IMG/VR virus record: IMGVR_UViG_3300019874_000002
Span: 32,001-96,000 of that record
DNA from: a virus
Taxonomy: Duplodnaviria > Caudoviricetes
Direction: 5' to 3' (one strand)
DNA: 64,000 bases
The stretch's first letter is position 1; each line of letters begins with the position of its first letter. Below, piece after piece: positions 47,791-64,000 of this stretch. A model generated the notes under the pieces. The model saw nothing but the letters and a program-made list of their open reading frames with translations. It ran no database searches and was not told the DNA's origin. The translations under genes and the position numbers were made by a program.

Positions 47791-48183
47791 TTACGCGAAG
47801 TATCCGACAATATTTCCAGTTACTGCAGTGGTCAGAAGAAACGTTCGAACAGTACCGTCAATTGACGTAACGGTAACTGTCGAAACGCCACCCACGACGG
47901 CGGACATCGCAACCACATCTCCAGGACGAAGATCGGCGATTTCTTGACCAGTAAGATCGAACACCGAACCGACTCCAGAGGCACCATCGCTCATTGCGAG
48001 CAAAAGCTGTCCTCCCACGATGTTTACGACTGACCCAAGCAAAGCACCTCCGAATGCTGGATCAACAGCTGACAGCACTGTCTTGCTATCAGGAATTGTA
48101 AAGGTTCCTGCAACCTTTACAACAAATGGTGTAAGCGGATCGCGTCCACCGACATTGAAGCGCACAAGATTCTGACGAGACAT
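47791..48183 (-). CDS. Putative head structural protein
   Basis: 130 aa, AAGGAG RBS, beta-rich. Confidence 0.6.
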   Translation of the reverse strand: MSRQNLVRFNVGGRDPLTPFVVKVAGTFTIPDSKTVLSAVDPAFGGALLGSVVNIVGGQLLLAMSDGASGVGSVFDLTGQEIADLRPGDVVAMSAVVGGVSTVTVTSIDGTVRTFLLTTAVTGNIVGYFA

Positions 48184-48234
48184 TGTTTCTCCTTTTTATT
48201 TACGAACGCCTCAACTCGGCGTCATTTGAAAAAC

Positions 48235-48573
48235 TTAGTTAGTAACCAACACGGTCCAGCGCACAGTGCATGGATTTGTTGCAACTGCGTAAACGCCAGC
48301 TGCGCCAGACTCCTTCGACGCATTGATTGTAAAGGTGTTGTTTGCGTTTTGAACCGACGCTAGACGATGAACTGTCGCCACACCTCCAGCGTCTTCAAAA
48401 TTCAATGACTGAACAACATATGACATGATGTCGACACGTCCACCTTTCATCCGAATAGCACGTCCAAGGTCGACGACTGTCGACCCTGTAAACGTGATCA
48501 ATCCAGTAAGATGACTTGATTGATTTCTCTGTTCGCCGACTCGCGGCTTTCCTGTCGCTACTCGTTTAGCCAT
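48235..48573 (-). CDS. Putative head structural protein
   Basis: 112 aa, GGAGG RBS. Confidence 0.6.
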   Translation of the reverse strand: MAKRVATGKPRVGEQRNQSSHLTGLITFTGSTVVDLGRAIRMKGGRVDIMSYVVQSLNFEDAGGVATVHRLASVQNANNTFTINASKESGAAGVYAVATNPCTVRWTVLVTN

Positions 48574-49322
48574 TAAATCCTCCGTTCCTGTTTTTCAATT
48601 ACACGCGCGAGTCGCTCGCAGGTTGCCCACGCATATTGTGGTCGATGCGACTTAATCACTTTGACTGCTTCATCGAATGATAGCTCCATCCGTCTACGCT
48701 CCACACGACCGCTCGCTAGAGCTGCACCTCCACTATGCGCTGGCGATTGACCTCCAGCAGACAGAGCTTTTCTAATATTACTCGCTTCCATTTGCTCGTA
48801 AGAACCAAATGACTTCGCGAGAATACTCCAAGAACATTTAGTGTTCACCGGAACACGCGTAATCGCAACGTCGCGAATCTTTGCCTTTAGTATTTTGTTA
48901 TCGTATCCTCGATCGACAACCTTACCTTCAATACTAAAACCGAGATGTCTAGCAACGCCACTCTTTAGCAGTGATTTAGCAAGCGTCCAAATGCGATCAG
49001 CAGGCTCGTAGTCAACAAGCAAATTACCCTCCGTCCACCAGGACCCCTTCCGTAATTCTGCCATCGACGGCACACCCACAGCATCCGCAGTCCCTTGCTT
49101 GTGGTTATCGTTAAACCAACCGTAGTTCACGAATTCTGTGAAATCCAACCCCTTTGCTAAAACACGCTCGTCCTGCCGGTCCAAATCTTCCGTGGAACAC
49201 GTTCCACCGATTGGGCGTGTTCGCTCTATATCTACTGCGCCTTTGGACAAATCAATTACAACACAGCCTGGTGTCCAAATGATAAAATCGTCTTTACCAT
49301 CTAAGATATCGTTGTCTTTCAT
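48573..49322 (-). CDS. Prohead protease
   Basis: GTCSTEDLDRQDE, GWFNDNH (His), LGFSIEG (Ser), VAITRVPVN. Confidence 0.88.
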   Translation of the reverse strand: MKDNDILDGKDDFIIWTPGCVVIDLSKGAVDIERTRPIGGTCSTEDLDRQDERVLAKGLDFTEFVNYGWFNDNHKQGTADAVGVPSMAELRKGSWWTEGNLLVDYEPADRIWTLAKSLLKSGVARHLGFSIEGKVVDRGYDNKILKAKIRDVAITRVPVNTKCSWSILAKSFGSYEQMEASNIRKALSAGGQSPAHSGGAALASGRVERRRMELSFDEAVKVIKSHRPQYAWATCERLARVIEKQERRI

Positions 49323-49325
49323 CGA

Positions 49326-50207
49326 TTACACCGTGTTCATGATGTAAATTGGCTTTGCTATATTAGCCATAGGTGTGAAAAACTTCTCGTATGTCGGAAA
49401 CGAATCAACGTCGTCATTGCCTTGACTCAACGTAATCCAAGGCATGCGGTGCGGAAACAACAACATGAACTGAACGCGCAGCCAAACATGGTCAATCTCC
49501 TCGTCCAACAACAATCCTCCCAATCCACTAACTAGATCTGACCTTTGAATTTTCTGCAACGCATCCCAAACAGGTTCAAGATCCATTGCGAATCTAAACA
49601 AATATTTGTGAGCCACACAGTGATAATTCTTTTGTGTCAATCCGAACGAACATCCGTTATCCCACCCAATTGCGCGCCAGCACGCTTTCCCATCAACAAT
49701 GTCCAAACGCGCACCATAGTTCGCAGCATGACGATCTCGAGAACAGGCTAGGTAATCTAACACCGTAAGGCGTAGCGTGTCACTAGGCGGCAGCTTATCT
49801 CTCAAAGTCTCCCGGAGAGAGATGGCCCACATTTCCCTATCGTTGGGCTTACGCAGCCTTGGCTCAATGGCAACCAACCGAGCTGAGGTCGTGTATTGCT
49901 GGTAGGACGCTGTGACACCTTCAAACTCCCCTAAAATCGTCTCTGGAACTACCTCAAATTTTGGATCATATTTGTGAAGTATTTTACACAGGCGATAGAA
50001 TGCAACTTCACGTCTTGGAAACGTCGTCACAGGAAGCCCACGTTGCAATTCACGATTGCGCTTTGTTGCAACCGTAGACGCGATCTTTACAACAGCTTGG
50101 ATACCGTTTGAATACGTAGCTAAGCGCGAACCAACTTTCCCCTCTTTCAATAGGGACATCTTTTCAGGTTTCAGCTGCTTAACCGATATTTCGAATGCGG
50201 TAGTCAC
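49326..50207 (-). CDS. PI3/PI4-kinase-like (HipA-related) atypical kinase
   Basis: AVVK lysine, REVAFY, VVPET, DRHAAN catalytic loop, WDNG Mg-binding motif. Confidence 0.75.
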   Translation of the reverse strand: MTTAFEISVKQLKPEKMSLLKEGKVGSRLATYSNGIQAVVKIASTVATKRNRELQRGLPVTTFPRREVAFYRLCKILHKYDPKFEVVPETILGEFEGVTASYQQYTTSARLVAIEPRLRKPNDREMWAISLRETLRDKLPPSDTLRLTVLDYLACSRDRHAANYGARLDIVDGKACWRAIGWDNGCSFGLTQKNYHCVAHKYLFRFAMDLEPVWDALQKIQRSDLVSGLGGLLLDEEIDHVWLRVQFMLLFPHRMPWITLSQGNDDVDSFPTYEKFFTPMANIAKPIYIMNTV

Positions 50208-51157
50208 ACTTCACACTGATGATCCATCAAAGCTCGAACGCTGTATGTAATATCGTCAGACATTGACTTTTTAGTCGACGCTATAATCTTTCCATTCGCA
50301 TCAAATGCAAATCCAGCAGGCATCTCGTGCAATTCGCATTGACAACCAGGGTGCACTACACCAATAACAGGTCGCCATTCAGTCCTCCCTGCACGTTTTG
50401 GGTGAACGGCTCTACGACCGTAATTAGTTCCGTTGTTAGCCAACTCTGACAGCCTAAACAGACGTGGTTTACGGCCGTTCGTGTACAGCATTCTACAAAA
50501 TCTACAGGCGTCTGGTTGAATCGTTTTATAAACCAGCGGATCAAACCCATCCGCAGCTATCCCAAGAGCCTTCCCGTGCTCCTTAGCATTATGTAATTCG
50601 GTAGCTACAATCAACGCCCAATCGCGTTGCGTGTCTTTCAATTTCTTTTTGAACCTACGCTCAATCTGCTCTTTAGATGATCGCCTTGCGATACCTAAAG
50701 CAATCTCGTGCTGCACTATCCCCAAAGCCTCATGCCTAAGCTTCGTCGCTTCTTCGTGCGTAGATTGTTCAAAATCATTAATCATCGACATCGACAGATT
50801 TCCGATCAATCGGCCAACATGGTCTTTGGTCGCATTAATCGCATCCAATTCGTGTTGTGAGAACTGAGGCGGCGCTGTAGCGACAAACAGCCAAAATTTC
50901 TCCGGTGACATCCGCGCCAATGACAGGTCATTCTTTGGCGCGCTCGCAGCCATTTTACCAACCGTGTGCGCTGCCTGAATTGCAACCTGAGCGTGCTCGA
51001 TGCTCCCTTGGCGCAGGATATTATTGCGAACCAACCGATCGTAATCGTCCTTAGAAACTGCGCCTGGACCTAGCACTTCAACAGCAAGCGCAAGGTGATG
51101 GTCTGCAATCAATTGCCTGACCTTCTCGCGAGCCAAATCGCTAATTGGCTTAGCCAT
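50204..51157 (-). CDS. MuF/SPP1-gp7-like head morphogenesis protein
   Basis: IVATELHNA, ACRFC, VHPGCQC; probable start MAKPIS at 51157. Confidence 0.75.
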   Translation of the reverse strand: MAKPISDLAREKVRQLIADHHLALAVEVLGPGAVSKDDYDRLVRNNILRQGSIEHAQVAIQAAHTVGKMAASAPKNDLSLARMSPEKFWLFVATAPPQFSQHELDAINATKDHVGRLIGNLSMSMINDFEQSTHEEATKLRHEALGIVQHEIALGIARRSSKEQIERRFKKKLKDTQRDWALIVATELHNAKEHGKALGIAADGFDPLVYKTIQPDACRFCRMLYTNGRKPRLFRLSELANNGTNYGRRAVHPKRAGRTEWRPVIGVVHPGCQCELHEMPAGFAFDANGKIIASTKKSMSDDITYSVRALMDHQCEV

Positions 51158-51596
51158 TGGCTTTCGCCTCTTTCTCCTCTGGCGTAGGCTCTTTACCAGG
51201 ATACGAAAACCCTTCCACACCTGGAACAGGTTTTAGCTTTTGAAACTCGCCAATTCTCAAAGGCTTCGCTCCAAACATACGCTGTCTCTCATCAGCTGTA
51301 AGCGTCTTCGTGTAATAATCGTCCGTCGCGAGCCACGAAGGTGCTTTCACGTTAAACTTCTTGCAGTAGTACCTCAATGCTGGACGAATCTTCTCAACGT
51401 ACTTTCGACGCGCCGCCATATTATCTGCAGTATGGAGCACCATTAGAAACTTTGCATAATGCTTTAGCTGCGCCTCTAATTCATCTTTCGAACGACAAGG
51501 CAACACCTTTTCAGGAGTGTCAACCTCCACACCCTTTGTCCCATCGCCGCGATTGGTCGTCCTGAAGATCACATGGTCTGACTTCTCCTGATTCAC
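51150..51596 (-). CDS. Hypothetical protein
   Basis: 148 aa, coupled on both sides. Confidence 0.65.
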   Translation of the reverse strand: MNQEKSDHVIFRTTNRGDGTKGVEVDTPEKVLPCRSKDELEAQLKHYAKFLMVLHTADNMAARRKYVEKIRPALRYYCKKFNVKAPSWLATDDYYTKTLTADERQRMFGAKPLRIGEFQKLKPVPGVEGFSYPGKEPTPEEKEAKANG

Positions 51597-54500
51597 GACT
51601 TTCCTTCTTTCTTCTTCTCTCCAAACGCAACCATGGATTGCGTCATCAATCCTTGACTCTGAAGCGCCCCCACAACCTTCTGCATGTACTCTTCTGCTTT
51701 ATCATTTGAGAATGGATTACGTCCATCCTCATCGTCCCAAATCGGTTTTAGCTCCTTCTTGATAAACTCGTTCCAATCCCCAGACCTTGTCTTTGTCAAA
51801 CGCTCAAAGAAATGATGCGCCTCTCCTTGAGATATCTCGGAACCTTTAACTTTACGAGTGCTACCCTCTTTGAATGGATTATCGCTAGAATGAAACTCCA
51901 AACCTAGATTTGGCTTCTTACTCGTCACCTTCGACGGCTCGCTACCTTTTGGAATTGGTGAAGCATTCCAGTCTTCGCTATCCTTCTGTTGCTTCTGCGC
52001 AGTCTTCTTCTCAACTGTGCGCTCTGCCGTGCCTACGGTAGCTGTCGCTTGCTTTGGCTTCTCAGCAGCCTTCGGTTGCTCTGCCACAGCCTTTACTTTG
52101 CCTTTAGCTTCCTTCTTTGAGCCAGTCTTTGGCTTCTCGGATGCCAATTCAGGATACTCTTTCTGCAATCCCTCAGCTTGCTTTGCGTAATGGTCAGCTT
52201 TATCATTATCGCCTTTATCACGGTAAACCTGTTCCATCAGGTTAGCCATCTGAAACTTCTGTTTAGAATTTCGCTTATTGCGGTCAAGCTCCCATTGACC
52301 TCTAAACTCTTTTTCGTCAAAATTCTTTGTAAGCGCATGCGCTCCGCGCTTCTTCAGATTGGCTTTGCCTTCTTTGCTCGGCTCGAAATCCTTATCGGTC
52401 AATTGAGCACTCAAACCACCCCTACCTCCTGCAGCTGCAGACTCTTTCCAATCTTCTCCAAGAGCCTCAATCTTTTTAGCATGTTTGGACAGTCCAACAG
52501 AACCAACCGTCTCCTCTGCTTCTTTCTGTCCTGGTGACGCCAAATCGTATGATTTGGCGTTCTCCATAATCGTTTTAATCTGCGCCTCGCTAAACGTCGC
52601 TCCTTGGACACGACGCATTAGATCGTGCACAGACCCTTCTACGTCAAACGTCGCACTCGTCGGCAATTCTTTACCAAGCAACGCCCCAACCATTGCTTGT
52701 TTACCTGCGATCTTCTGCTCCACCATCATGTCATACGTGCCTACAGAGCGGTATGTCTTCTCATGAACATCTTCCGTCTGACCAGTACGCCATTGACGAC
52801 CAATCGCCTGACGCTTTTGCGCTGGATTCCACGGCTCATCAATAAATAATGTTTTGTTCCCACCTTCCTGTAAATTCAGACCAGCGCCTCCAGAAACCGT
52901 GCCTGTCAACAAAACCTTGGAGTGACCTTTATTGTACTTATCTTGAATATAGCCGCGTTCGGAAGGAGCAACGTCTCCAGCAATCGTATCGATTAACGAT
53001 GGATCAATGCCACGCTCTGCGAGTGCTTTCCTAATAATTGGAAAAGCCTTTTGAGGAAATGAGCAAAATGCGACAATACCTTTGGCAGCCTTCCCACCTT
53101 GCCCACTATTTGAAAAATGAGCGATAACATCGTCGCAAAAAGCTTTCAATTTAGGCGTGTGCGCAATACCACCATCAGATTTACGGTATGAGGCATCAAT
53201 CAATGCCGGAGAAATTGACGCTTGACGCTGCAACATCATTTGCATGCCGCCAGCCATGAGCGCTAGAGCACCTTCGTTGTGCTCCTCGTAGCGCTCCCCT
53301 GTTGACGGATTAATCTCTCTCGCTTCGATCTTCGCACGTCGCTCTTTAATCAAACGTTCAATACGAAGCTTGACCATCGTATCGATAACGCCATCCTCCT
53401 TAAAATAGTCATTCTGAGACAAACCGTTCTCAGAGCTAACTACCTTCGACAGTGCCAAATCACCTTCATCCGGCCATTGCTCTTTTGACTCGCTGACACC
53501 TACGCGCTTCGTCAACCCCTTACCCATATCTGCCACAACGTCTGGGTCAGTGATTGATTTATAAAACACGAACGGCTTTAGTCGTTTATTCAAATCGGCA
53601 AGATGCTCAGGATTTGACACTCTATATGCTTGGTCGTCTTCATTCCACGCAACACCAGCCATTCTTCCAGACCAAAGCTCTTGATCGCCTACGCTATCTG
53701 GTGCAAATAGATTCGCGAGATGGTACAAATCCATTGGATCGTTTGGCATTGGCGTAGCTGTCATGCCAAATGCATACTCACGATCTTGCATAACAGCTTT
53801 TGCAATCTCGTGTCTCGTATTGCCAGCTTTCTTATAACCTCCAGAATGCGCTTCGTCGATAAAGACTGCACCTTCCAAATTTTGAAGAATCTTTACCATT
53901 TCATGGTCAGACCCACCGGTACCATCGTTCTCGTCTTCGCTTGCATTTGGATCTGGAACATCTCCAGTCAAGGTCCCTGACGAAATAAAAATGTACCGCG
54001 CTTTCTTCGCCAAATCACTTTGAAGTGCAACCTTCCGCTCCTCGAGAGAAAAACCGCTTAGATTAAGAATCTTGTCCGCGCTCTCCGGTGCAAACTTCGC
54101 AATTACTCCAGGCCACTGCTCCATCAGCGACGGCGGAAGAAACATCACGGCAGGAATGTCTTTACCTTGTGCACGCAATTGCTCCATGAAAGCAATGACG
54201 GTAGGACTCTTTCCCATCCCTGCATCTTGCGCAATCACACCACGCTTCACCGCCATCATCCAATTGATATACTTCTTCTGGTACCCAAATGGCTCCCAAA
54301 CCCCTTTACTCGGATCGTTTGGATCCTTTAGTGTCTTTCCGTTCCAAATACCATCTTTCATCGTCAACGGAACATCAAACGAATCATCTTCTTGCGCAGC
54401 GAGAATTTTTACAATCCGTGCCTGCTCTTTTGCGACGTTTACCAAATGATCGTCCATGATATCGCTCTTACCGGCGACATCGTTCATCTTCATCTTGAAG

Positions 54501-55984
54501 ACATCTGCAAAATGAGGATCCTGCCCAGTATTGTAATCAGTGAACGCTTTGAGAGTCGCTTCTGACGTCTTTTGCAATTTACGTTTCAACGTTGACCGTG
54601 CGGCGCTGTCATTGCTGACGATACCGAGCTTTTGCGCAATCAAATCAAACACACCATCTATCGTCGCATCGGTGTGATCACCTGGAGCGTAATCGTAAGT
54701 GTTGTCAGAAGAGAACGAATTCTGTGCGTCCGTCGCCGTATACACGGCCATCAATTGCGACGCATTCAAACGCTCAAGCTGATTATCTTTCCACAGAGAC
54801 CCTAGATCACGCTTACGAGTCAGAAGCAAACCAGACTCTGGGATAATCGCGCCACGCATCCTGCGCTGCGCCACACCACCCTTAGAACCTCTTTTGATTA
54901 ACCCCATTTGATGCATCGCCACAGTCATCCGCACAGCTAGATCATTTGGGTCGTCGCCCAACATCATATCGGAAGCAAGCGGCGAAAATTCATCGGCCAT
55001 CTGCTCTGCTTTAATGTAGAACGCATTACGATGAATCTCTAATTTCTCTGCGGACGCTGTTGCAGCGGCTTGAACCTTTGGATCCTCGTGGAGTGCTTTC
55101 CTATAGCGCCCCATCAATCCACGAATAACCTCTAGAATGTCTTCTGGAGATTCGACATCTCCATATTGAGGGTCACCCACAAAGAGGTCGGCATTCGTTC
55201 TAAAAAACTCCTCCGTCGCCTCTTCAAATCCAATATTGCGACCTCCAATCTTCACAGAGATATTATGCAAACCTCCAGCCTTCTCCACGTCATTTCTCGT
55301 AATCCCAAACGAGCTTAAAACGTTGTCATAATTATCATGCCACCATTCCATGAAATTATGGTCAGCTTCGCTCAACGCATCGCTATGCAATAACGCGTCG
55401 TGTAGATCAAGCTGGTCATGCGCTGCAAATGGCTGAGGCATGTAATACTGTCGAAAATGCTCTACAACATTATCTGGTGTCGCTTGCTTTGTGAAACTAC
55501 CGTGTGGTCGCTCTCCATACCGGACATTGCCTTTATCATCCCTCCAAAACTTACCGCCACGCGAACCAGCGCGCTCCACATGAACGTAACCGCTCGGTGT
55601 AAGTTTTCGCTCCACAGGCGCGGAGCTAGACATCTTGTGTTTACCTGTTGCAGCTTGCTCGCTCGGATTGCCTCCGTACCGTCCACCAATTGGCGAATTG
55701 GACATTTTCGGCAGCTTTGGCTCTGCTTTGAAAAGCAAACGTCCGTCGCTTGTGACGACAAACGATCCGGCCGCAGACTTTTCGATACCGTCTTCTTCGA
55801 GCACAGCCATTACGTCTGCTTCTAAAGCAGACATCCGAGCACGATACAGCGCGTTCAAATCATCAGATAAAGTTTGCGTGACAGCGTGACGCATTGGCCG
55901 CATTGGAATACGCAACGTAGCTTTGATGAGCAAATCGTCTCCGATTTGCAAACCCTCAAGTAATGCGTCATCGTCAATCGACAT
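51593..55984 (-). CDS. Large SNF2-family helicase/ATPase, probable internal head protein
   Basis: PFGYQ, QDAGMGKS, IDEAH, MTATP, GGAGLNLQ, WNPAQKRQAIGRQWRTGQ. Confidence 0.85.
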   Translation of the reverse strand: MSIDDDALLEGLQIGDDLLIKATLRIPMRPMRHAVTQTLSDDLNALYRARMSALEADVMAVLEEDGIEKSAAGSFVVTSDGRLLFKAEPKLPKMSNSPIGGRYGGNPSEQAATGKHKMSSSAPVERKLTPSGYVHVERAGSRGGKFWRDDKGNVRYGERPHGSFTKQATPDNVVEHFRQYYMPQPFAAHDQLDLHDALLHSDALSEADHNFMEWWHDNYDNVLSSFGITRNDVEKAGGLHNISVKIGGRNIGFEEATEEFFRTNADLFVGDPQYGDVESPEDILEVIRGLMGRYRKALHEDPKVQAAATASAEKLEIHRNAFYIKAEQMADEFSPLASDMMLGDDPNDLAVRMTVAMHQMGLIKRGSKGGVAQRRMRGAIIPESGLLLTRKRDLGSLWKDNQLERLNASQLMAVYTATDAQNSFSSDNTYDYAPGDHTDATIDGVFDLIAQKLGIVSNDSAARSTLKRKLQKTSEATLKAFTDYNTGQDPHFADVFKMKMNDVAGKSDIMDDHLVNVAKEQARIVKILAAQEDDSFDVPLTMKDGIWNGKTLKDPNDPSKGVWEPFGYQKKYINWMMAVKRGVIAQDAGMGKSPTVIAFMEQLRAQGKDIPAVMFLPPSLMEQWPGVIAKFAPESADKILNLSGFSLEERKVALQSDLAKKARYIFISSGTLTGDVPDPNASEDENDGTGGSDHEMVKILQNLEGAVFIDEAHSGGYKKAGNTRHEIAKAVMQDREYAFGMTATPMPNDPMDLYHLANLFAPDSVGDQELWSGRMAGVAWNEDDQAYRVSNPEHLADLNKRLKPFVFYKSITDPDVVADMGKGLTKRVGVSESKEQWPDEGDLALSKVVSSENGLSQNDYFKEDGVIDTMVKLRIERLIKERRAKIEAREINPSTGERYEEHNEGALALMAGGMQMMLQRQASISPALIDASYRKSDGGIAHTPKLKAFCDDVIAHFSNSGQGGKAAKGIVAFCSFPQKAFPIIRKALAERGIDPSLIDTIAGDVAPSERGYIQDKYNKGHSKVLLTGTVSGGAGLNLQEGGNKTLFIDEPWNPAQKRQAIGRQWRTGQTEDVHEKTYRSVGTYDMMVEQKIAGKQAMVGALLGKELPTSATFDVEGSVHDLMRRVQGATFSEAQIKTIMENAKSYDLASPGQKEAEETVGSVGLSKHAKKIEALGEDWKESAAAGGRGGLSAQLTDKDFEPSKEGKANLKKRGAHALTKNFDEKEFRGQWELDRNKRNSKQKFQMANLMEQVYRDKGDNDKADHYAKQAEGLQKEYPELASEKPKTGSKKEAKGKVKAVAEQPKAAEKPKQATATVGTAERTVEKKTAQKQQKDSEDWNASPIPKGSEPSKVTSKKPNLGLEFHSSDNPFKEGSTRKVKGSEISQGEAHHFFERLTKTRSGDWNEFIKKELKPIWDDEDGRNPFSNDKAEEYMQKVVGALQSQGLMTQSMVAFGEKKKEGKS

Positions 55985-55988
55985 TTAT

Positions 55989-57299
55989 CTACCCTTCACC
56001 GTTACCCTGCGTACGGATTGGCTCGTCGTCGCCAATACCAAGATGCCCACTCTTTTCGATGTAGTCAGCGACCTCTTGGTCCGTTCCAGTTTCCCAAATC
56101 ACAAGCTCATTCGTGCCACCCTTCTTAATTGGAGGCTCGTTCCGATTTCCGGAAGTGAGCGGCTTGTGAGGGACAAATGGCTTGATGGGTGATGGTCCGC
56201 GCGGAGGTAGCTTCGCACCTCCACCAGGCAATCCTTTCGCAATCAACGCCTTCCTGCCAGCGAGATACGCGATATGATCACCTGCCTCCAGACGAGTCAT
56301 CTCCGATTTGGAGATCTTGTACCAACCATCTTTCATCTCGTCAACGTTCATACCCATCTGAACCATTTCGCTTTTGCTGATTGGGTATTCCTCTTGGTCC
56401 CCAGCTTCAGGACCGTTGCAGCTCTTGAGCAGTGGCGCAATTGCATCATGCTCCGATACGCCAGAACCAGGACGAGACGGCTCTACTTGACCGTCACCTC
56501 CAGAATGCGGATTGTCATTGTCGTCCACAACAAATTGAGGCCCTAGCCCTTTGTGGAGATCTTCATGCGTCAAGCCGTGCTTACAATGCACGCAATTGGT
56601 AATTGGAGAGTTGGAATCATTTCCAAGCTCAGCCTTAAACAGATCAGATATTGCACTCTTTGTCATGTCGTTTTCTCCTTCAGATTTACTTGTGTATGGC
56701 TGCAGAGCGCCACTCGTTTGACGATGAGCAACAGCCAAATTTTTGTGTACGGCTGCTTGCGAGACGTTTCCGGCGATCCTGTGAAATTCATGTGCGCGTT
56801 CGTGTTCTCCTGCCGCGTCATGATGCAAGAAAGCTTGCACGTGCGTCGGCCGCGATTGGCTCATATTAGCTAATGACGATTTTTGATGAGCCGATTTACC
56901 AGCAGTAACAGCCGCTGCACCGTATCCGCCATCATCTTTTGGCCCAGACCCAGGACCACCCTTCGCAATACTCACCTTTGGTTTCATCTTCGTATGTCCT
57001 TCCTTTCTACGTTGCTTATTCACCGTTGCAGCGGCAATACTTTCACTTGCTCCGCTATCTTTAATATGATTGTACTGCCTCTCATCCTTCGCATTCCACC
57101 CAGCGCCTTTTTTTACATCCGGCGTTTTAGACTTCTTTTCCTCTTCCTTTGCAGCGTGAAACTTTGGATTGACGTCAGCATTATCGTGCATTGGAACCTT
57201 CACAACGCGCGGCATATGCCCAACCGGAGCATCTACAGGCTCCCCAATATGATCGTTCGGACCATTCTTCTTTTTGTCAATCTTAACAGCCATTACCAA
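55989..57299 (-). CDS. Modular low-complexity protein, probable internal head protein
   Basis: KGGPGSGP, His/Ala-rich block, many x-K-S/G/A motifs. Confidence 0.7.
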   Translation of the reverse strand: MVMAVKIDKKKNGPNDHIGEPVDAPVGHMPRVVKVPMHDNADVNPKFHAAKEEEKKSKTPDVKKGAGWNAKDERQYNHIKDSGASESIAAATVNKQRRKEGHTKMKPKVSIAKGGPGSGPKDDGGYGAAAVTAGKSAHQKSSLANMSQSRPTHVQAFLHHDAAGEHERAHEFHRIAGNVSQAAVHKNLAVAHRQTSGALQPYTSKSEGENDMTKSAISDLFKAELGNDSNSPITNCVHCKHGLTHEDLHKGLGPQFVVDDNDNPHSGGDGQVEPSRPGSGVSEHDAIAPLLKSCNGPEAGDQEEYPISKSEMVQMGMNVDEMKDGWYKISKSEMTRLEAGDHIAYLAGRKALIAKGLPGGGAKLPPRGPSPIKPFVPHKPLTSGNRNEPPIKKGGTNELVIWETGTDQEVADYIEKSGHLGIGDDEPIRTQGNGEG

Positions 57300-57303
57300 C
57301 TCC

Positions 57304-59394
57304 TTATTGTGCCACAGGCTGACCTGGCTTTGAAGACTTCACAGGCTTTACTTCTGACGTTCCAGAAGAAGGCTGACCTTCCAGTACCTTCCCGGTGATC
57401 ACATCGAACAGCAACCCAAAGTAATCACCATCTAATCCATGAGCATCACCAAATTCGGCCAAATGTGTACTCATAAACGATACAAACTTCTGTCTCGCAT
57501 CTTCGCCATATTTCTTCTGCATCTGCATAACGATTTTCTGAATCACTGCACGTTGTACATTCAATGCAGAACAAAACTCTGCGACATTTAATGTATGTTT
57601 TGGAGCCTGTGGTTTCGAAGGATCAGGTGCACGCACATCCTTCTGATCTGGTTTTTCCGGATGGTCTGCAGCAATAGGTTCCTGGTCTGCATTTGGAGAT
57701 GGCAAATCAGGATGTGGTAATTTCGTTTCTTCTTTTTTGCCAGCTTGCATTTCTGCAGGATTACCGTTTGGTTGCTGTGACGATTGAGGTTTAGCTCCCT
57801 GCTCTCCTGGATAATTATATCTCACCTGGCCACCACTACCGAGCTTTTTGGAGCTAGCTCCAATGACCTTTGAGCCAACCTTTTTATTACTTGCTTCACG
57901 TTGATCGTCGGACATCTTAGGCAATGCCTTTACCAGCACAGCCTTCCTAAATGGAACAGTCATCCGCTTGCCTCCAATCGATAACGCGACTGAATCGAAA
58001 TTAATGTCGACAGGCTCAAAACGCTCCAATGGCGTTTTGTCTTTCTTTCCGATATATGCAAGCGTTACGTGCGGTGTAAAACCATGAACACTTCCGGACG
58101 TCAGTCCAGCTTGGCGCAACAGCTCCATCAAACTAGAATGCAATCTCGTAATGTCTGGTGAATCAACAGACAAATAAATAACATCCTTACCTTCCGACGA
58201 TTCACTAGCACTGAACCGCCCAACGCCGCTCAATGAAGCCTTGATACCGAGCGCTAGACTTGTAAATTTACGAACAACAGCAGCCGCGGCTTTCTTCCGC
58301 TTCTCGGTCAATCCTTTACCAAGATACGCGAGCGTAATGTGCATCGACTCTGGGGACTCACCGCCGCGGATAGCGATTTTATTTGCAATCTTGTCCGGTA
58401 AGTGCAGCGCGATCATCGTACCGCTGTGCGCTCCGCCTTTAATAATCAGAGTCGGCATCAACTGGTTAGCTTGTGCTAAAATCTTTACGTCTACGTCGTC
58501 ATTTAATAGCTCTAAAGCTTCAACCAACGTAACCCATTTCGCTGCTTCAACCTCTTCACCGTCAACACGAGTGACAACACTCCTAGGTGTCATAACGTAG
58601 TAATCGCAAGTACCGCCGTCATTATGTGTAAACCGCCCAAGTTTTCTATCGATTTCGCACGGTAGTCCTGTTTCTTCTTTTACCTCGCGCAACGCCGTCT
58701 CGACATTATTTTCGTACTGATTTGGATAACCTTTTGGAAACGTCCAATCATACCCACCAAATCCATTAGTAGGTTTAATCAACAAAACCTTCCCATCAGA
58801 ATTCATTACAATCCCACCCCCACAAACTCTCGTCGTGTCTTTATCTAAAACACGATTTACAAATGCGCCCTGCATCAACTGTCTGTAATTACCAGGAACG
58901 CGCTCCACCGTGTCGTCTCCAGACGGCCCCCAAACTCGTGTTGTAGATTCTGGCGCGTCTTCTAATTCTGCGGTCGCATCTCCGTACTGAGGAAGTGGAG
59001 ACTGTCTAGACCCAATCTCTTGATTGAAAACTTCCTGTTCTCGGTCCGCCCTCTCTGCATCAAACTTCGACGTCAATCGTTGCTCTGCCTCTTCCAATTG
59101 CGTACAGAAATCCAATATCGCCACGTCGTCACTATCAAGAGGTTTTGCTGTAAAACCATTACCGTTTAATGCAAAAAGGAACGGCCGATCGTGAGAATAC
59201 AAAACACCTCGGTAGCCTAGCTTCGTACGCTCGACAAATACTCTGTCAATTGGTTTCACTGTCGACAGTTCGCGAACGTCATCTCTAATCACGTCGTAAA
59301 TACCAACCGGCGCTGCCTCCAAATCACCACGAACTGGTTTGGCGTTTACAATCAGTAGTTTTGGATGCACTGAAAGCATCGTGCTATTTTTCAT
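57304..59394 (-). CDS. Nudix hydrolase + 2H phosphoesterase (Acb1/LigT-like) fusion
   Basis: Nudix box PKG...ETALREVKEETGL; two HxT motifs, HITLAY and HVTLAY. Confidence 0.85.
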   Translation of the reverse strand: MKNSTMLSVHPKLLIVNAKPVRGDLEAAPVGIYDVIRDDVRELSTVKPIDRVFVERTKLGYRGVLYSHDRPFLFALNGNGFTAKPLDSDDVAILDFCTQLEEAEQRLTSKFDAERADREQEVFNQEIGSRQSPLPQYGDATAELEDAPESTTRVWGPSGDDTVERVPGNYRQLMQGAFVNRVLDKDTTRVCGGGIVMNSDGKVLLIKPTNGFGGYDWTFPKGYPNQYENNVETALREVKEETGLPCEIDRKLGRFTHNDGGTCDYYVMTPRSVVTRVDGEEVEAAKWVTLVEALELLNDDVDVKILAQANQLMPTLIIKGGAHSGTMIALHLPDKIANKIAIRGGESPESMHITLAYLGKGLTEKRKKAAAAVVRKFTSLALGIKASLSGVGRFSASESSEGKDVIYLSVDSPDITRLHSSLMELLRQAGLTSGSVHGFTPHVTLAYIGKKDKTPLERFEPVDINFDSVALSIGGKRMTVPFRKAVLVKALPKMSDDQREASNKKVGSKVIGASSKKLGSGGQVRYNYPGEQGAKPQSSQQPNGNPAEMQAGKKEETKLPHPDLPSPNADQEPIAADHPEKPDQKDVRAPDPSKPQAPKHTLNVAEFCSALNVQRAVIQKIVMQMQKKYGEDARQKFVSFMSTHLAEFGDAHGLDGDYFGLLFDVITGKVLEGQPSSGTSEVKPVKSSKPGQPVAQ

Positions 59395-62300
59395 TTTCGC
59401 ACACGCTTTCTAATGACGATAGCCTTTGCCACTACAGGAGCGTCCTTGCCAAAGACTTTACGAACTGACGACGCGACGCGCGTCAATAGTCCAGGCTTCT
59501 TTCCTTTCACTGGAGGCGCAGCATCAAATTCTCCTTGAGGTAGTTTCTTGGCAGATTCACGCATATTGTGCTGCGTGTCTATTGCCTGCTTTGCTTCCCT
59601 ATTGCGGCGTTTCTCCTCTTCAGACATATTTGCATTTTTTGCATGCGCGCGGTCCACTGATTCTTGGCGCTCCCTAGCCTTCCGTCGGTCGTCTTCGTAA
59701 AAGTGTTGCTGCTTCTGTGCTTGAGTCATCCCGGCTAGTGGGTCAAACGGCTTGTGCACATAACGAGGTCTTTCCTTTGAAAGCTTCTCCAATGGAGACA
59801 ACTCTCTTGGTTCCTCAGGCTCCTCACGAATTCTTTGATTGTTTCCAATCACAAAATCTGGCGTATCTGCGTACTGCTGTTCCACAGAAGCCGATACGGC
59901 CGGTTCATTCTCCTCGTCGCTACCAATCCGATGGTGCCCAATACGTGTAATCGCTTCACGCTCCACCGCGGCACTGGCATCTGCGCGCGCTTGATTCTTT
60001 GCTTCTCGTTCATGATAGCGTGCAGCGGCTTTGTCCTTTGATTCTTTGTAAAACGCGGCACGATTCTCCAGGTCTTTTTGCGTCTCAACGTACGTAGTTT
60101 TGACCTCGCCACGACGTTTAATACGCTCAGCCTCCAACTCTTTCTTTACTTTTACCTTCGCTTCTTTCACCGCCGTCACAACGGCTTTATGCTCGTCATG
60201 CTCACCAGCAAGCTTTGCAATCTTCCGGTCTAATGAGCCATGCTTCTTTTTGTCGACAGTTTTCTTTTGTGCCTTGAGCGCAGCCATCTTCTCTTTAATC
60301 GTCTTCATCTGGTCACGGTGCGCAGCCTCTGTATAGCTGTGAGTCTCAAGTTGCTTTTGATGTCCACGCAAACGCTCTCTTGCGTCAACAACATGGCGTG
60401 CAACATTTGAACGTTCCGAGTCTTCTGCGCCTTGCTTTCCATAAACAACATCACCATGGTCATTACGGTACCAAATACCGCCACGCGACCCCGGTTGCTT
60501 GACGATATTAATGTGCTTTAGGATATCGCTCAGAGCATCATATGCGTCAATGCACTCTGCAAATGCCTTTGCTAGATCGCTCCCCTTCGCAACCTTCAAA
60601 GCCTTCCGTTGCTCCTGCTCAAACTCCACAATGTGCAAACGATTCTCGTGCTGCCTATACGCAGCATGTTGCCTCGTTTTCCAGGTTGCCAAATCATTAC
60701 TCGTCGGCATATCGCGCACCGCCAAACGCGACATGTACTCTTTAACCATTGGATGCGCCCCACCAAGAGCATTAGCGGCGGCAGTAAATTGAGCTACCGC
60801 TTCTTGGTCTGCACCTTTGGTATTATGCAGTTTAACAGCTGCTTCGTGCAACTGCACAACACCGACTTTTTCATGCCAATTCGTATTACCTTTAGCATCC
60901 GTCACCCACGCACCAACATCTTGCGCGGCCTGCATTGTACCATGCGCTTGTTCATGCACTGGTGCCAGATTAGGAATCTGCTTGAGATTCTGAACTAGCT
61001 TGTAATGCTCATTCAAAACCTCTGCTTTCTGCTGCAGCTGCTTTGGGAGCGTTACATTCTTTATTTGCGCTGGCAGATTCAAATCATTTGCGATGCCAAG
61101 CTTTACAGCCAAATCTCGATTGGAACCTGGTTGCTTAAAAAACGTAATCGCTGGATGCTCGTGAGCACGAACATGTTGAACCTTCGGCTCCGCCAGCTTG
61201 GGCATTTGAGCCACAGGAACGGCCGTCCGATCCTCAATCTCTCGACGATTGAGTTTTGCCACCTTCGACTCGAGACGAAGCCACTTTTCAACCACCAATC
61301 CATCCGGTGTCAAACCGCCTTGTCGCGTCTTCAATCTATTATTTACGTGCTCTAAAGCTGCGGCGTACCACTTCTCCAAATGGTATCCTTGCTTATCAAC
61401 AGAGAGTGTCCCTAGCAGCGCCTTCTTTCCTTTGGGCAGCTCTACAGTGACACCAGCAAGCTTTGTGGCAATTGATGAAACACCATGCTCGCTACCAGTC
61501 CACGGACGGCCCCAATGCAATCCAGCTTTGCCGTACTTCTCTTGATGCCTCGCGCGTTGCTCATTGAACGCGTGCTCTTGTGATTTATCAGGATGCGAGT
61601 CGTCATCGTCCATCCACAAACGCGATTCTAACGCATAACGCATATGTGGCGGTAGATCGGCGATAGCTTCTCGAATAATCTTCTTTGCAATTGGCTCGTA
61701 GTGATGCAGCTCAAAATGCTCCCTCGGAGAAATCATCTTCGGAGCTTTGTACTCCTCCTCCTCGTGGAGATCTTCAAGCGCTGTTGCCCCAAGCTCAATC
61801 GCGGCTTGCTTCGCAAACTGCTCGAGATGGTTCTTAATCGCGTTCTCTGCGCGCAAATCAAAACGGCTGTACTGGCCTTTTGGCTCGTCATTTGGAACGT
61901 ATTTGTTCGCTTGATCGAGGAGCACTGCGACAGCTTCATTAAACATGTCACGCTCGCGATCATACATATAACGCTTAGCAGATGACTCCGCCAACTTTCC
62001 AGCATAACCCTCCCTATGCGTTACCTCATCCATTTCTCTATAGATGTCCGTCGAAGCGAACACACTACCAAACTTGCGAGTCCACCTTCGGATAAAAGGC
62101 GCCCATTCCTTCAACAACTGCTCACGAACGCGTTTGCTCTTATTGTCAGGGTTCCAAATTCCCAATGTAATGAGCGTCGTCAGCGGCCGACCTTCTGTTC
62201 GTGAAAGCTCATGTTGCAATTGCGCAGGAGAATCAAACTTATTCACCGCCCACATTGGAAGCGGACTGATCTCGCGTTTACCTACAACCTCGTCGAATTG

Positions 62301-63101
62301 ACCTTCGCGATCAGCTCGAGCTTTCGCCTGACCAGCTTCCGTCTTGGCGTGACTTGGTTTTAGCGCTCGCAGTGACGCGTCGAGATACGCCGTCGCAATC
62401 ACGAGCGGATCCTCTTCTGCAGTTAAAGGCTCTCCGATTGATGTCCGGTTCTCCGGTAGCCTCTTAGGCACATTGTGGATACCCAACTCTTCAATCGTCG
62501 GTTCAATCTCGTAAACACCGTACGGTCCGTGTTCATGCACCTCACGCACACCACCGAGGGGCCGATCGTGTGTTCCAGTTGCTGGCAGTTCAATCTTGTC
62601 TTTGGTCGGCACGGGCTCACGAGGCTGTGCTTCGACCTTATATTGCGTAATCTTCTTTGGGAGTCCTTCCTCACTACCGCCGTATGCTCTAGCAACGGAT
62701 GAATCCCTAAACTCAAACGAAGTGTACCCTTTGTGTCTTTGAACTGGATCAACAACGACTTTGCCCCTGTCTGTTGTCCGAGTCCGGTACTCAATCAGTA
62801 AACCACGCTTCTGCCAAAACCTGCCGCCCTCTTTGAAACCGTATTCCCCGAACAACTCCCTATTAATTATCTCCCTGATTGCAGCTTGCCCAGTGACTTG
62901 ACCCTTCTCGTCAAGCTCATTTTCATTGGGGTAAACATATTCAACCGTTCCATCCGAGAGCGTGATCTTTGCAATGTATTTGTGCGCCGCACCTTTAACA
63001 GACTTCTCGTCATATCGAACATTGCCATGCTCGTCTAAACGAAACTTAGCACCCCTTGCCCCAGGGCGCTTTACGTTCTCTGCTTTGAAAAGGAGCAGCA
63101 T
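59391..63101 (-). CDS. Large multidomain protein with sigma70-like region
   Basis: REQLLKEWAPFIRRWTRKF...DMFNEAVAVLLDQANKYVP...SRFDLRAENAIKNHL (region 2-like); IIREAIADLPPHMRYALESRL (region 4 start-like); coiled-coil C-terminus. Confidence 0.6.
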   Translation of the reverse strand: MLLLFKAENVKRPGARGAKFRLDEHGNVRYDEKSVKGAAHKYIAKITLSDGTVEYVYPNENELDEKGQVTGQAAIREIINRELFGEYGFKEGGRFWQKRGLLIEYRTRTTDRGKVVVDPVQRHKGYTSFEFRDSSVARAYGGSEEGLPKKITQYKVEAQPREPVPTKDKIELPATGTHDRPLGGVREVHEHGPYGVYEIEPTIEELGIHNVPKRLPENRTSIGEPLTAEEDPLVIATAYLDASLRALKPSHAKTEAGQAKARADREGQFDEVVGKREISPLPMWAVNKFDSPAQLQHELSRTEGRPLTTLITLGIWNPDNKSKRVREQLLKEWAPFIRRWTRKFGSVFASTDIYREMDEVTHREGYAGKLAESSAKRYMYDRERDMFNEAVAVLLDQANKYVPNDEPKGQYSRFDLRAENAIKNHLEQFAKQAAIELGATALEDLHEEEEYKAPKMISPREHFELHHYEPIAKKIIREAIADLPPHMRYALESRLWMDDDDSHPDKSQEHAFNEQRARHQEKYGKAGLHWGRPWTGSEHGVSSIATKLAGVTVELPKGKKALLGTLSVDKQGYHLEKWYAAALEHVNNRLKTRQGGLTPDGLVVEKWLRLESKVAKLNRREIEDRTAVPVAQMPKLAEPKVQHVRAHEHPAITFFKQPGSNRDLAVKLGIANDLNLPAQIKNVTLPKQLQQKAEVLNEHYKLVQNLKQIPNLAPVHEQAHGTMQAAQDVGAWVTDAKGNTNWHEKVGVVQLHEAAVKLHNTKGADQEAVAQFTAAANALGGAHPMVKEYMSRLAVRDMPTSNDLATWKTRQHAAYRQHENRLHIVEFEQEQRKALKVAKGSDLAKAFAECIDAYDALSDILKHINIVKQPGSRGGIWYRNDHGDVVYGKQGAEDSERSNVARHVVDARERLRGHQKQLETHSYTEAAHRDQMKTIKEKMAALKAQKKTVDKKKHGSLDRKIAKLAGEHDEHKAVVTAVKEAKVKVKKELEAERIKRRGEVKTTYVETQKDLENRAAFYKESKDKAAARYHEREAKNQARADASAAVEREAITRIGHHRIGSDEENEPAVSASVEQQYADTPDFVIGNNQRIREEPEEPRELSPLEKLSKERPRYVHKPFDPLAGMTQAQKQQHFYEDDRRKARERQESVDRAHAKNANMSEEEKRRNREAKQAIDTQHNMRESAKKLPQGEFDAAPPVKGKKPGLLTRVASSVRKVFGKDAPVVAKAIVIRKRVRK

Positions 63102-63102
63102 G

Positions 63103-63999
63103 TTAATTCAAATCAATCTCAAAAAAGTCCATATCAATTGATTTCTTGACACTGCCCAATTGATCATGGTGTGCAGACACAATATTTTTCGCACCTGACA
63201 GTCCGTCCGCTTCACCGAGCTTTTGGAACGTTTGACCTCCCCCAGGTTTATAGCTCACAGATGCACGATTAACGACCTTATCGTGACTGATCGAGTACAT
63301 CCCATGAGTCGCAATACCTGCGTGATAATCAGTTGCAGGTGACTTCATCGTTCGTTTGAAACTGACAGTACCGTGAAATGGTTTGGGGCCAGAACCAGAA
63401 CCGCCTTTATACAAATCGTTATCTCTCACAGATGAATGCACGCTGGACTCCCAATCGTTTTGCTTCAGGAAACGAATGTTGTCGTCCTCTTCGTGAGATT
63501 CGTCTTGAGGTTTTGAACCTCGCGCCATTGCACCAAGCTTTTTACCAGCATCTTTCGCCGTCGGAGATGGCCCGTCTCCAGCATTGCCAAAACGGTTTGC
63601 GTACGGTTGCTCTGGAGGCTGTTCCTCGTCACCACCTTCATCACCACCAGGAGCGCCCATTCCAGGCGGCATTCCGCCAGCACCTCCGCCTTGCTGTTCT
63701 GCCATTTCCTTCTGCATGAGATACTGAAGGTAAACAGGATTGGCGATCACATCACCATGCTTCACTGGACCGACATCATCCAATGCGCGCAGCTCATTGA
63801 TAGTGACGTGCGTTTGACCTTGCTTCTGGCGCAGCTCTGCAGCTTGTTCCTCACTCTTCGCATCGAGACCTACGAGCACAAACTCAAAATCCTCATCGAT
63901 ACGGTCAACGATGTTCCGATTGATGAAGGTTTCAAAGAAGCGAAGGAGAGGCTTTAATCCTCTGTCCTTTGAAAGCTTCTGCTGAGCTTCGTTATTGCC
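63103..63999 (-). CDS. Portal protein, C-terminal part (5' end outside the window)
   Basis: Frame is open to the window edge: SKDRGLKPLLRFFETFINRNIV...FVLVGLD...TINELRA...GDVIANP, matching Herelleviridae-type portals. Confidence 0.85.
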   Translation of the reverse strand, partial: GNNEAQQKLSKDRGLKPLLRFFETFINRNIVDRIDEDFEFVLVGLDAKSEEQAAELRQKQGQTHVTINELRALDDVGPVKHGDVIANPVYLQYLMQKEMAEQQGGGAGGMPPGMGAPGGDEGGDEEQPPEQPYANRFGNAGDGPSPTAKDAGKKLGAMARGSKPQDESHEEDDNIRFLKQNDWESSVHSSVRDNDLYKGGSGSGPKPFHGTVSFKRTMKSPATDYHAGIATHGMYSISHDKVVNRASVSYKPGGGQTFQKLGEADGLSGAKNIVSAHHDQLGSVKKSIDMDFFEIDLN

Positions 64000-64000
64000 C

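Follow-up and report, generated by a model that had tools for sequence, protein, structure and literature searches.

What are seven genes, several of them with enzyme domains, doing between the portal and prohead protease genes of a phage? The question is raised by a virus record from the Caudoviricetes, IMGVR_UViG_3300019874_000002, of which we analysed a stretch of 64,000 nucleotides; this stretch, referred to below as the window, comprises bases 32001-96000 of a 118.7-kb IMG/VR record rated 100% complete. Its interval 49326-63101 is filled by seven minus-strand open reading frames, here named A to G, with the portal gene on one side and the prohead protease gene on the other. A prediction made by a model from the sequence alone (the original prediction) had proposed that this cassette encodes enzymes that are made late, loaded into the prohead and delivered with the DNA at the next infection. 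We consider it probable that the cassette does encode late-made, capsid-loaded, protease-trimmed and injected cargo proteins.

A cassette between portal and prohead protease

The phage can be placed by its capsid protein (467 residues, 45326-46729), which is 35-37% identical to its counterparts in SPO1, SP-10, CP-51 and other Herelleviridae, and we therefore regard it as a distant SPO1-type myovirus. SPO1, SP-10 and Nachito have the protease gene right next to the portal gene, 76-95 nucleotides away, so the interval is a real peculiarity when compared with the cultured relatives. All genes of the region lie on the minus strand. From portal to protease, the features are:

63103..64000, minus strand: C-terminus of the portal, 298 residues; PHROG portal families at E = 1e-14
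59391..63101, minus strand: protein A, 1236 residues; a tag (described below), a core of about 850 residues with a predicted sigma region-2-like domain, a second tag and a charged C-terminal module
57304..59394, minus strand: protein B, 696 residues; N module (14-150), Nudix domain (193-305), 2H domain (323-482) and C module (487-686)
55989..57299, minus strand: protein C, 436 residues; Gly/Lys/His-rich, with one conserved module (about 205-287) containing CxxC
51593..55984, minus strand: protein D, 1463 residues; N module (1-490), SNF2 ATPase (558-1149) and a Lys/Ala/Glu-rich tail
51150..51596, minus strand: protein E, 148 residues; small, conserved and always just upstream of F
50204..51157, minus strand: protein F, 317 residues (338 from an alternative start, to 51220); candidate MuF-like minor head protein
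49326..50207, minus strand: protein G, 293 residues; predicted protein-kinase-like fold
48573..49322, minus strand: prohead protease; phrog_1028 at E = 7e-44

The junctions from portal to protease all measure -8 to +4 nucleotides, which is the spacing expected of one translationally coupled operon. That seven genes on one strand separate portal from protease, as originally claimed, is borne out by the layout of the reading frames, by these junctions and by the adjacency of the two flanking genes in SPO1, SP-10 and Nachito. The further claim that the seven are co-transcribed is suggested by the tight spacing; scans for promoter and terminator consensus sequences found no more in the real sequence than in shuffled ones and do not bear on it.

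The cassette has no megablast match among 50,697 phage records. The family of protein G comprises 39 clusters, all on metagenomic phage contigs of up to 119 kb, and about 20 loci with enough flanking sequence were examined. In all of these the order is portal, optionally A, then B, C, D, E, F, G and protease. This order is kept down to 35% identity in the kinase-like protein, and B through G are present in every relative with enough flank.

Given such recurrence, it is very improbable that the interval is a chimera made by the assembly, or foreign DNA recently acquired and without coherent function. The suspicion is natural for a record that is a metagenome-assembled contig, for which base composition is no independent check; among public sequencing runs, the sequence was found in two DNA runs from one soil metagenome sample, its probable source, and no RNA runs carrying it are listed. 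However, GC content and GC skew are uniform across the window, every frame in the cassette is open, its genes are tightly coupled, and about 20 independent contigs, which come from different samples, share this order. Because the order recurs in so many contigs, an assembly artefact is excluded. The notion that seven free enzymes were inserted into the head operon also has to be given up: the cassette is instead a gene set conserved throughout the clade, and its large proteins are only partly swappable enzyme.

Conserved carriers with exchangeable enzyme domains

Comparison of the portal-protease interval in relatives had been suggested as a check on the original prediction, and across the loci examined it reveals variable cargo between conserved flanks. 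The expected variability is found in the domains borne by the conserved proteins B, C and D, whereas E, F and G never vary. By these comparisons, B, C and D are conserved carriers with swappable enzyme domains, and E, F and G an invariant core.

Relatives of B range from 254 to 669 residues and keep the N (14-150) and C (487-686) modules, with or without the Nudix and 2H domains between them (boundaries from BLAST). Relatives of C occupy the same position and are 158-874 residues long, yet only residues 205-287 are kept, and one of them also has an S-adenosylmethionine (SAM) lyase domain. The N module of D (its first 490 residues) stands alone as a protein of 467-486 residues in a sub-clade without SNF2. 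A Pfam survey of 43 cargo proteins of the clade gave SNF2 (five proteins), 2H (three), DUF5661 (three) and SAM lyase (two), along with single hits to topoisomerase IB, ADP-ribosyltransferase, Nudix and DUF3293.

In the window, the Nudix domain of B matches Pfam NUDIX at E = 8e-16 (58.6 bits against a cut-off of 21.1) and has an intact Nudix box at 225-247, while the 2H domain matches Pfam 2_5_RNA_ligase2 at E = 4e-13 (50.3 bits against a cut-off of 27) and has both of its motifs intact, H-I-T at residue 356 and H-V-T at 446. The nearest solved structures to the Nudix domain are Ap4A/Ap6A hydrolases and decapping enzymes, and the 2H and Nudix parts also match PHROGs annotated as head protease and portal, families whose members have these domains fused to the head proteins. 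In D, the match to Pfam SNF2-rel_dom is above the cut-off (E = 1e-13) and is accompanied by matches to ResIII, Helicase_C and phrog_62 (E = 2e-48), with SNF2 motifs I, II, III and VI intact. The original labels of B as Nudix plus 2H and of D as an SNF2 ATPase are confirmed by these matches and motifs. No methyltransferase domain was found in D or its neighbours by Pfam and related family scans, tblastn of D against phages returned only four weak helicase matches, and the N module of D had no usable match in the ESM Atlas. Protein C has no family match in Pfam, PHROG, NCBIfam or PADLOC. It had been described as a modular His-rich protein; it has one conserved module, and the histidine enrichment is modest (5.5% of 436 residues).

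The invariant genes E, F and G

Protein E was originally called a small unknown, and this description stands: it is small, it is well conserved (20 invariant columns in a six-way alignment), and it has no family match in Pfam, PHROG, NCBIfam or PADLOC.

For F, an ATG start matching that of its homologues gives 317 residues. F itself has no Pfam, PHROG, NCBIfam or PADLOC hit, and a PDB sequence search returned nothing meaningful. Among 23 relatives of F, Pfam Phage_Mu_F (PF04233) is found in three at E = 0.004 and VG15 in seven at E = 2e-5, all under the cut-off. Alignment with hhalign pairs F with SPP1 gp7 residues 149-202, where the MuF domain of gp7 starts (its initial 54 columns), a weak match (E = 0.008), and gives E = 0.33 against Mu gp30. 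By tblastn, F matches genes adjoining the portal in SP-10 and Nachito (1e-25), of which the one in Nachito bears the annotation 'minor capsid protein'. The earlier assignment of F to MuF is thus favoured by gene position, both within the portal-protease interval and next to the portal in homologues, and in sequence it is reflected by weak matches below cut-off. A zinc-type CxxC...HPxCxC motif in F was considered as a MuF hallmark and dropped, as SPP1 gp7 and Mu gp30 do not have it.

Nachito has, between its MuF-like gene and its portal gene (L015, 12801-15401), an 866-residue protein annotated as hypothetical only, whose C-terminal part is a PARP/ADP-ribosyltransferase domain (E = 7e-17). It is possibly an Alt-like cargo protein.

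Protein G has no match to a Pfam kinase or other family, nothing meaningful in a PDB sequence search and none by tblastn against phages. An AlphaFold2 (AF2) model on 32 homologues has a predicted local distance difference test (pLDDT) score of 90, and Foldseek matches this model to PI4K-II in the PDB (E = 8e-7, probability 1.0, template modelling score about 0.5) and also to Fam20C, CtkA and HipA. Invariant across the 32 homologues are Lys41 (ATP-binding), D158-x-H160-x-x-N163 (catalytic loop) and D183-N184, of which D183 corresponds to the metal-binding Asp of kinases. The modelled fold and the invariant catalytic residues agree in making G a predicted kinase-fold protein, for which the original term, atypical kinase, is a fair label.

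The constancy of these genes bears on an alternative reading, in which A to G belong to the inside of the head or to its assembly (as an internal core, an inner body or accessories of the scaffold), act in head assembly or DNA packaging, and then remain in the capsid or are degraded without being injected as effectors. Modules of B, C, D, E, F and G are kept in every relative, E, F and G being always present; a place beside protease and scaffold genes is typical of assembly genes; and the long low-complexity Lys/Ala/Glu/Gly tracts of the cassette proteins look scaffold-like. However, Nudix, 2H, SAM lyase, ADP-ribosyltransferase and topoisomerase IB domains have no known part in capsid assembly, and the enzymes swap between close relatives, which is a pattern typical of conflict genes. 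We regard a role in assembly as unlikely, and the distribution of the tag found in A and D is a further point against it.

A shared tag

The tag is a stretch of 37 residues with a core PG-S/A-RGG, an aromatic pair and then G-x-V-R-Y-G-x-x-P. In a six-frame translation of the whole 118.7-kb genome it occurs in three copies only, two in A and one in D (h, hydrophobic; the arrow marks the candidate cut):

62979..63086, minus strand: tag copy 1, A residues 6-41; preceded immediately by a conserved h-h-x-K↓A site; hmmsearch E = 5e-17
60411..60518, minus strand: tag copy 2, A residues 862-897; where the A core meets the C-terminal module; hmmsearch E = 2e-18
55490-55600, minus strand: tag copy 3, D residues 129-165; within the D N module

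Seventeen of the 19 members of the A family have the tag at the N-terminus. This family (18 clusters) consists mostly of proteins of about 850 residues that end where the second tag begins in the window's A, and the shorter homologues stop just before tag copy 2. All members of the D family contain the tag too, as do other cargo proteins of relatives. A tag profile search of the SPO1, SP-10 and Nachito loci found no copy.

A profile made from eight copies was searched against 1.84 billion representative proteins and matches 286 of them (46 at E<=1e-10), many with 2-4 copies. The top 40 tag proteins carry InPase (5), ART-PolyVal (3) and LPD1 (3), as well as ddrB-ParB, RadC, RelA_SpoT, Nudix, 2H, SAM lyase and GNAT (2 each); one example is a 2354-residue RadC-InPase-RelA protein with four tags. 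Several of the Pfam families found on tag proteins owe their definition to the polyvalent proteins, a class from phages and conjugative elements that is predicted to be injected with DNA (Iyer et al. 2017, J Bacteriol, PMC5512222). That the tag keeps company with the effector domains of polyvalent proteins argues against the assembly reading. A term search (linker, short-motif) of the text of PMC5512222 found no description of the tag. DUF4124 was considered as an identity for the tag and rejected, as the similarity, seen in 4 of 8 copies, stays under the threshold (E = 0.009 at best).

A relative, G001 (L008, 7509-13085), encodes an 1858-residue cargo protein with the tag and a eukaryotic-type topoisomerase IB catalytic core (E = 6e-32), and its C-terminal part is homologous to A residues 860-975. 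The mix of parts in this protein indicates that modules shuffle between cargo proteins.

Candidate protease sites

In the capsid protein, a conserved L/I-x-K↓A (K32↓A) precedes the N-arm motif (N-arm, 46634-46729), in the clade as well as in SPO1, SP-10 and Nachito. The C-terminal region of the prohead protease (48708-48791, residues about 178-205; K185↓A) closely copies this motif as I/L-x-K↓A-L-S-A-G...GG-x-A-L, and the same copy is present in the SPO1 and Nachito proteases. The copy is a family trait of SPO1-type heads, and probably the site at which the protease itself docks or is self-cleaved.

A shorter pattern of the same kind, h-x-K↓A/G/S, recurs in the cassette. Members of the A family conserve it at residues 4-7, immediately ahead of the tag, and those of the D family conserve two copies near the N-terminus; the predicted cuts in the window's proteins include K6↓A in A and K21↓A and K86↓A in D. 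In B it falls at K319 (K319↓G) and K489 (K489↓A), which are the Nudix/2H/C-module borders found independently by BLAST. It also occurs in the C-terminal tail of the portal and in C, before a GG-P/S-GSGP motif. Written as [LIVMF]-x-K-[AGS], the pattern is found 33 times in A to D and the portal tail and not once in the 758 residues of E, F and G, where the rough expectation is about four; the site-free sequences of E, F and G may reflect avoidance of protease sites. As evidence for trimming, we take these sites to be suggestive only.

The full portal reading frame, which runs past the window edge, is 685 residues long in the genome, compared with about 507 in SPO1 and 576-615 in most relatives, whose portals match Pfam Phage_portal. 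Its end (63106-63405) consists of a Gly/Pro/Glu-rich linker, a candidate L-Y-K↓GGSGSGP site and an extra domain of about 100 residues without a match, perhaps a piece of cargo joined to the tail of the portal. One relative (L010, 1182-4076) has a 964-residue portal with a faint LAGLIDADG match, which suggests an intein or homing-endonuclease insertion.

A predicted sigma-like domain in protein A

Protein A has no Pfam, PHROG or PDB sequence match, and a profile search against the PDB was also empty. Neither A nor its 19 homologues has a Pfam hit, sigma-70 family regions 2 and 4 included, and Pfam Sigma70_r2 (PF04542) finds nothing in the whole genome at E<=10. The evidence on A comes from its predicted structure, in which one domain stands out:

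61782..62210, minus strand: predicted sigma region-2-like domain of A, residues about 298-440; AF2 model and fold searches

An AF2 model of residues 260-640 has a pLDDT of 80. VIA-align gives SigB as its top match (Z 8.7, root-mean-square deviation 2.5 Å over 91 residues), and about 20 of 50 rows are sigma factors, matched in sigma region 2; a Z score under about 13 is not decisive for helical domains in this method. Foldseek against the PDB places sigma-32 and SigB at the head of its list, yet only at E = 0.28, and a search of BFVD puts a Bacillus phage sigma factor first (E = 9e-3, probability 0.97). Language-model neighbours of A in the ESM Atlas include sigma clusters, which are only low-sharing leads. 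Two other matches were set aside: a marginal PADLOC match to Csm3 (E = 3e-4) is noise, as no stretch passes alone, and rows for T7 and cyanophage ejectosome proteins in the Foldseek search (E = 0.6-3.5) are not significant and were not used.

On the strength of the models, we lean towards A carrying a domain derived from sigma region 2. Only this domain is predicted, and a sigma function is no more than a candidate. The original description of A as a sigma-like protein therefore stands at the level of the fold for region 2, and it is not upheld by sequence profiles.

A sigma-like protein could serve late transcription, and with this a second alternative has to be weighed, in which the seven are late accessory genes riding in the head operon whose products stay unpackaged and act in the producing cell, in nucleotide housekeeping, pre-packaging DNA processing, late transcription or superinfection exclusion. 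We infer packaging of A to G, which leaves room for this alternative, and SNF2 helicases of SP-10-like phages sit among non-structural genes. On the other hand, if the late operon is the first source of a sigma factor, late transcription must already have begun by the time that factor appears. The alternative also leaves unexplained why the tag is confined to the cassette, why capsid-like sites fall where modules meet, and why the order of portal, cargo, MuF-like gene and protease is strictly kept over a wide divergence. We accordingly give unpackaged accessory genes a low probability.

Comparison with known systems

The original prediction did not recognise the combination as a described system. 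The kind is in fact already described, in polyvalent proteins and in effectors linked to MuF or portal (PMC5512222), and the cassette is no new category, as the principle was laid out in 2017 by Iyer et al. The precedents reviewed there are T4 Alt and internal proteins, P1 Dar, N4, the ejection proteins of giant phages and the polyvalent proteins themselves.

Polyvalent proteins have the same effector repertoire (SNF2, 2H, Nudix, ADP-ribosyltransferase, kinase) and are encoded beside portal, MuF and packaging genes; fusions of 2H to MuF or portal domains were also noted by Iyer et al. The cassette is likewise placed next to head and packaging genes, between portal and prohead protease. B (Nudix and 2H) and D (N module and SNF2) each hold the at least two domains per polypeptide that mark the class, which is modest against the 2-15 found in it. 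A polyvalent protein is, however, one giant polypeptide, whereas the cassette divides its domains among seven coupled genes and mounts them on carrier modules that the clade conserves. None of the window's proteins has a hit to the Pfam signature families (LPD1-39, ART-PolyVal, Kinase-PolyVal, ddrB-ParB, InPase, PBECR, MPTase), so the cassette is not a formal member of the class, and the link is indirect, through the tag. By analogy, the cassette would work as a polyvalent protein split into several coupled genes.

The Dar system of phage P1 (DarB with DarA, Hdf, DdrA/B and Ulx) likewise has a large SNF2-type ATPase, proposed to be DNA-protecting head cargo, and several accessory proteins that are loaded together. 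DarB couples its SNF2/helicase part to an N6-adenine methyltransferase, and since D has no methyltransferase, D is not DarB. No homologues of DarA, Hdf or DdrB are seen here, and the dar genes of P1 do not lie between portal and protease. Another very large superfamily 2 (SF2) helicase protein encoded among structural genes is Lvh of Thermus phage Lalka27a, which has 1715 residues and was detected in purified virions (bioRxiv 10.64898/2026.04.20.719267); like D in its size and its place among structural genes, it comes from a different phage group and is compared by description only.

In SPP1 and Mu the MuF gene is directly downstream of the portal and upstream of protease or scaffold; portal-MuF-protease is the normal order, and the place of the candidate F agrees with it. 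MuF proteins (SPP1 gp7, Mu gp30) are an established head component linked to effector delivery. In MuF-fused toxins the effectors are joined to MuF itself, whereas here they are separate genes and F carries CxxC...HPxCxC.

The internal proteins and Alt of T4 and the ejection proteins of giant phages of the phiKZ/SPN3US type are made late, targeted to the prohead, cut by the prohead protease at the motif that it also recognises in the capsid protein, and injected; enzymes acting on host transcription are among them (PMC5512222; PMC7411985). In T4 and phiKZ, Glu stands at position P1 of the cleavage site, the protease is of another family and the tag is removed; here Lys would stand at P1 and the tag would stay on the mature protein. 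Their capsid types also differ from the SPO1-type capsid of this phage. What is new in the cassette is the carrier-plus-insert design, the invariant core of E, F and kinase, the sigma-like cargo candidate, and a tag with a Lys-type site in an SPO1-type head.

Two further observations concern the head genes and genome size. Two small genes (112 and 130 residues, Val/Gly/Thr-rich) lie at 47791-48573, between the protease and an acidic scaffold-like protein; genes of similar size occupy this place in all relatives, and their products may decorate or complete the head. In the clade, genomes that are complete or nearly so measure 110-119 kb, as against about 133-150 kb in cultured Herelleviridae, and the capsid proteins have the same length. 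We might speculate that the smaller genome leaves capsid volume for protein, if capsid size is unchanged.

Probable injected cargo and its meaning

If the cassette does encode injected cargo, A to G would be late products of the head operon, translated along with the portal, protease, scaffold and capsid proteins. The cargo would be taken into the prohead, probably by way of the portal-proximal MuF-like F and the shared tag, and the prohead protease would trim it at hydrophobic-x-Lys↓Ala/Gly/Ser sites of the capsid N-arm type. When the next cell is infected, it would exit the capsid together with the DNA. The swapped domains brought in by this phage would be a Nudix hydrolase, a 2H phosphoesterase and an SNF2 translocase on their carriers, with A adding a sigma-like module.

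Several points weigh against this reading. The MuF assignment of F stays below Pfam thresholds, and the invariance of E, F and G would equally fit a purely morphogenetic role. SP-10-like phages also carry SNF2-family helicases outside the head module, so that an SNF2 domain alone is no cargo marker. The h-x-K↓A/G/S pattern is short and common, with about 5 expected per 1000 residues; published cleavage sites of SPO1-type prohead proteases were not found in a literature search, and the K↓A candidate site therefore rests on sequence conservation only. The clade is known from metagenomic contigs alone.

The core of the original prediction, proteins made late, loaded into the prohead and delivered, remains the best-supported reading, indirectly, through the position in the head operon, the MuF-like gene, the tag, the candidate sites and the swapped enzymes; from these we infer loading, cleavage and ejection, and any anti-defence or takeover role. 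The particular roles originally assigned (nucleotide-signal destruction, phosphorylation, DNA remodelling and transcription) do not carry over in the same way, as they are guesses from domain names. A bolder version, which we entertain only tentatively and think rather doubtful, is that the sigma-like A and the PI4K-like G are injected, and redirect host RNA polymerase and phosphorylate host proteins at DNA entry without a virion RNA polymerase, with the tag and its Lys site serving as a general, transferable address by which any enzyme could be loaded into SPO1-type capsids.

Should the cassette prove to encode injected cargo, this clade would show how phages diversify their injected proteins: the carriers and a loading core (E, F and G) would stay fixed while the enzymes are exchanged. 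The tag and protease site might load chosen proteins into capsids, and A would be a candidate injected sigma-like factor. The Nudix and 2H pair, SAM lyase, topoisomerase IB and ADP-ribosyltransferase would then be candidates for action against nucleotide-signalling and restriction defences.

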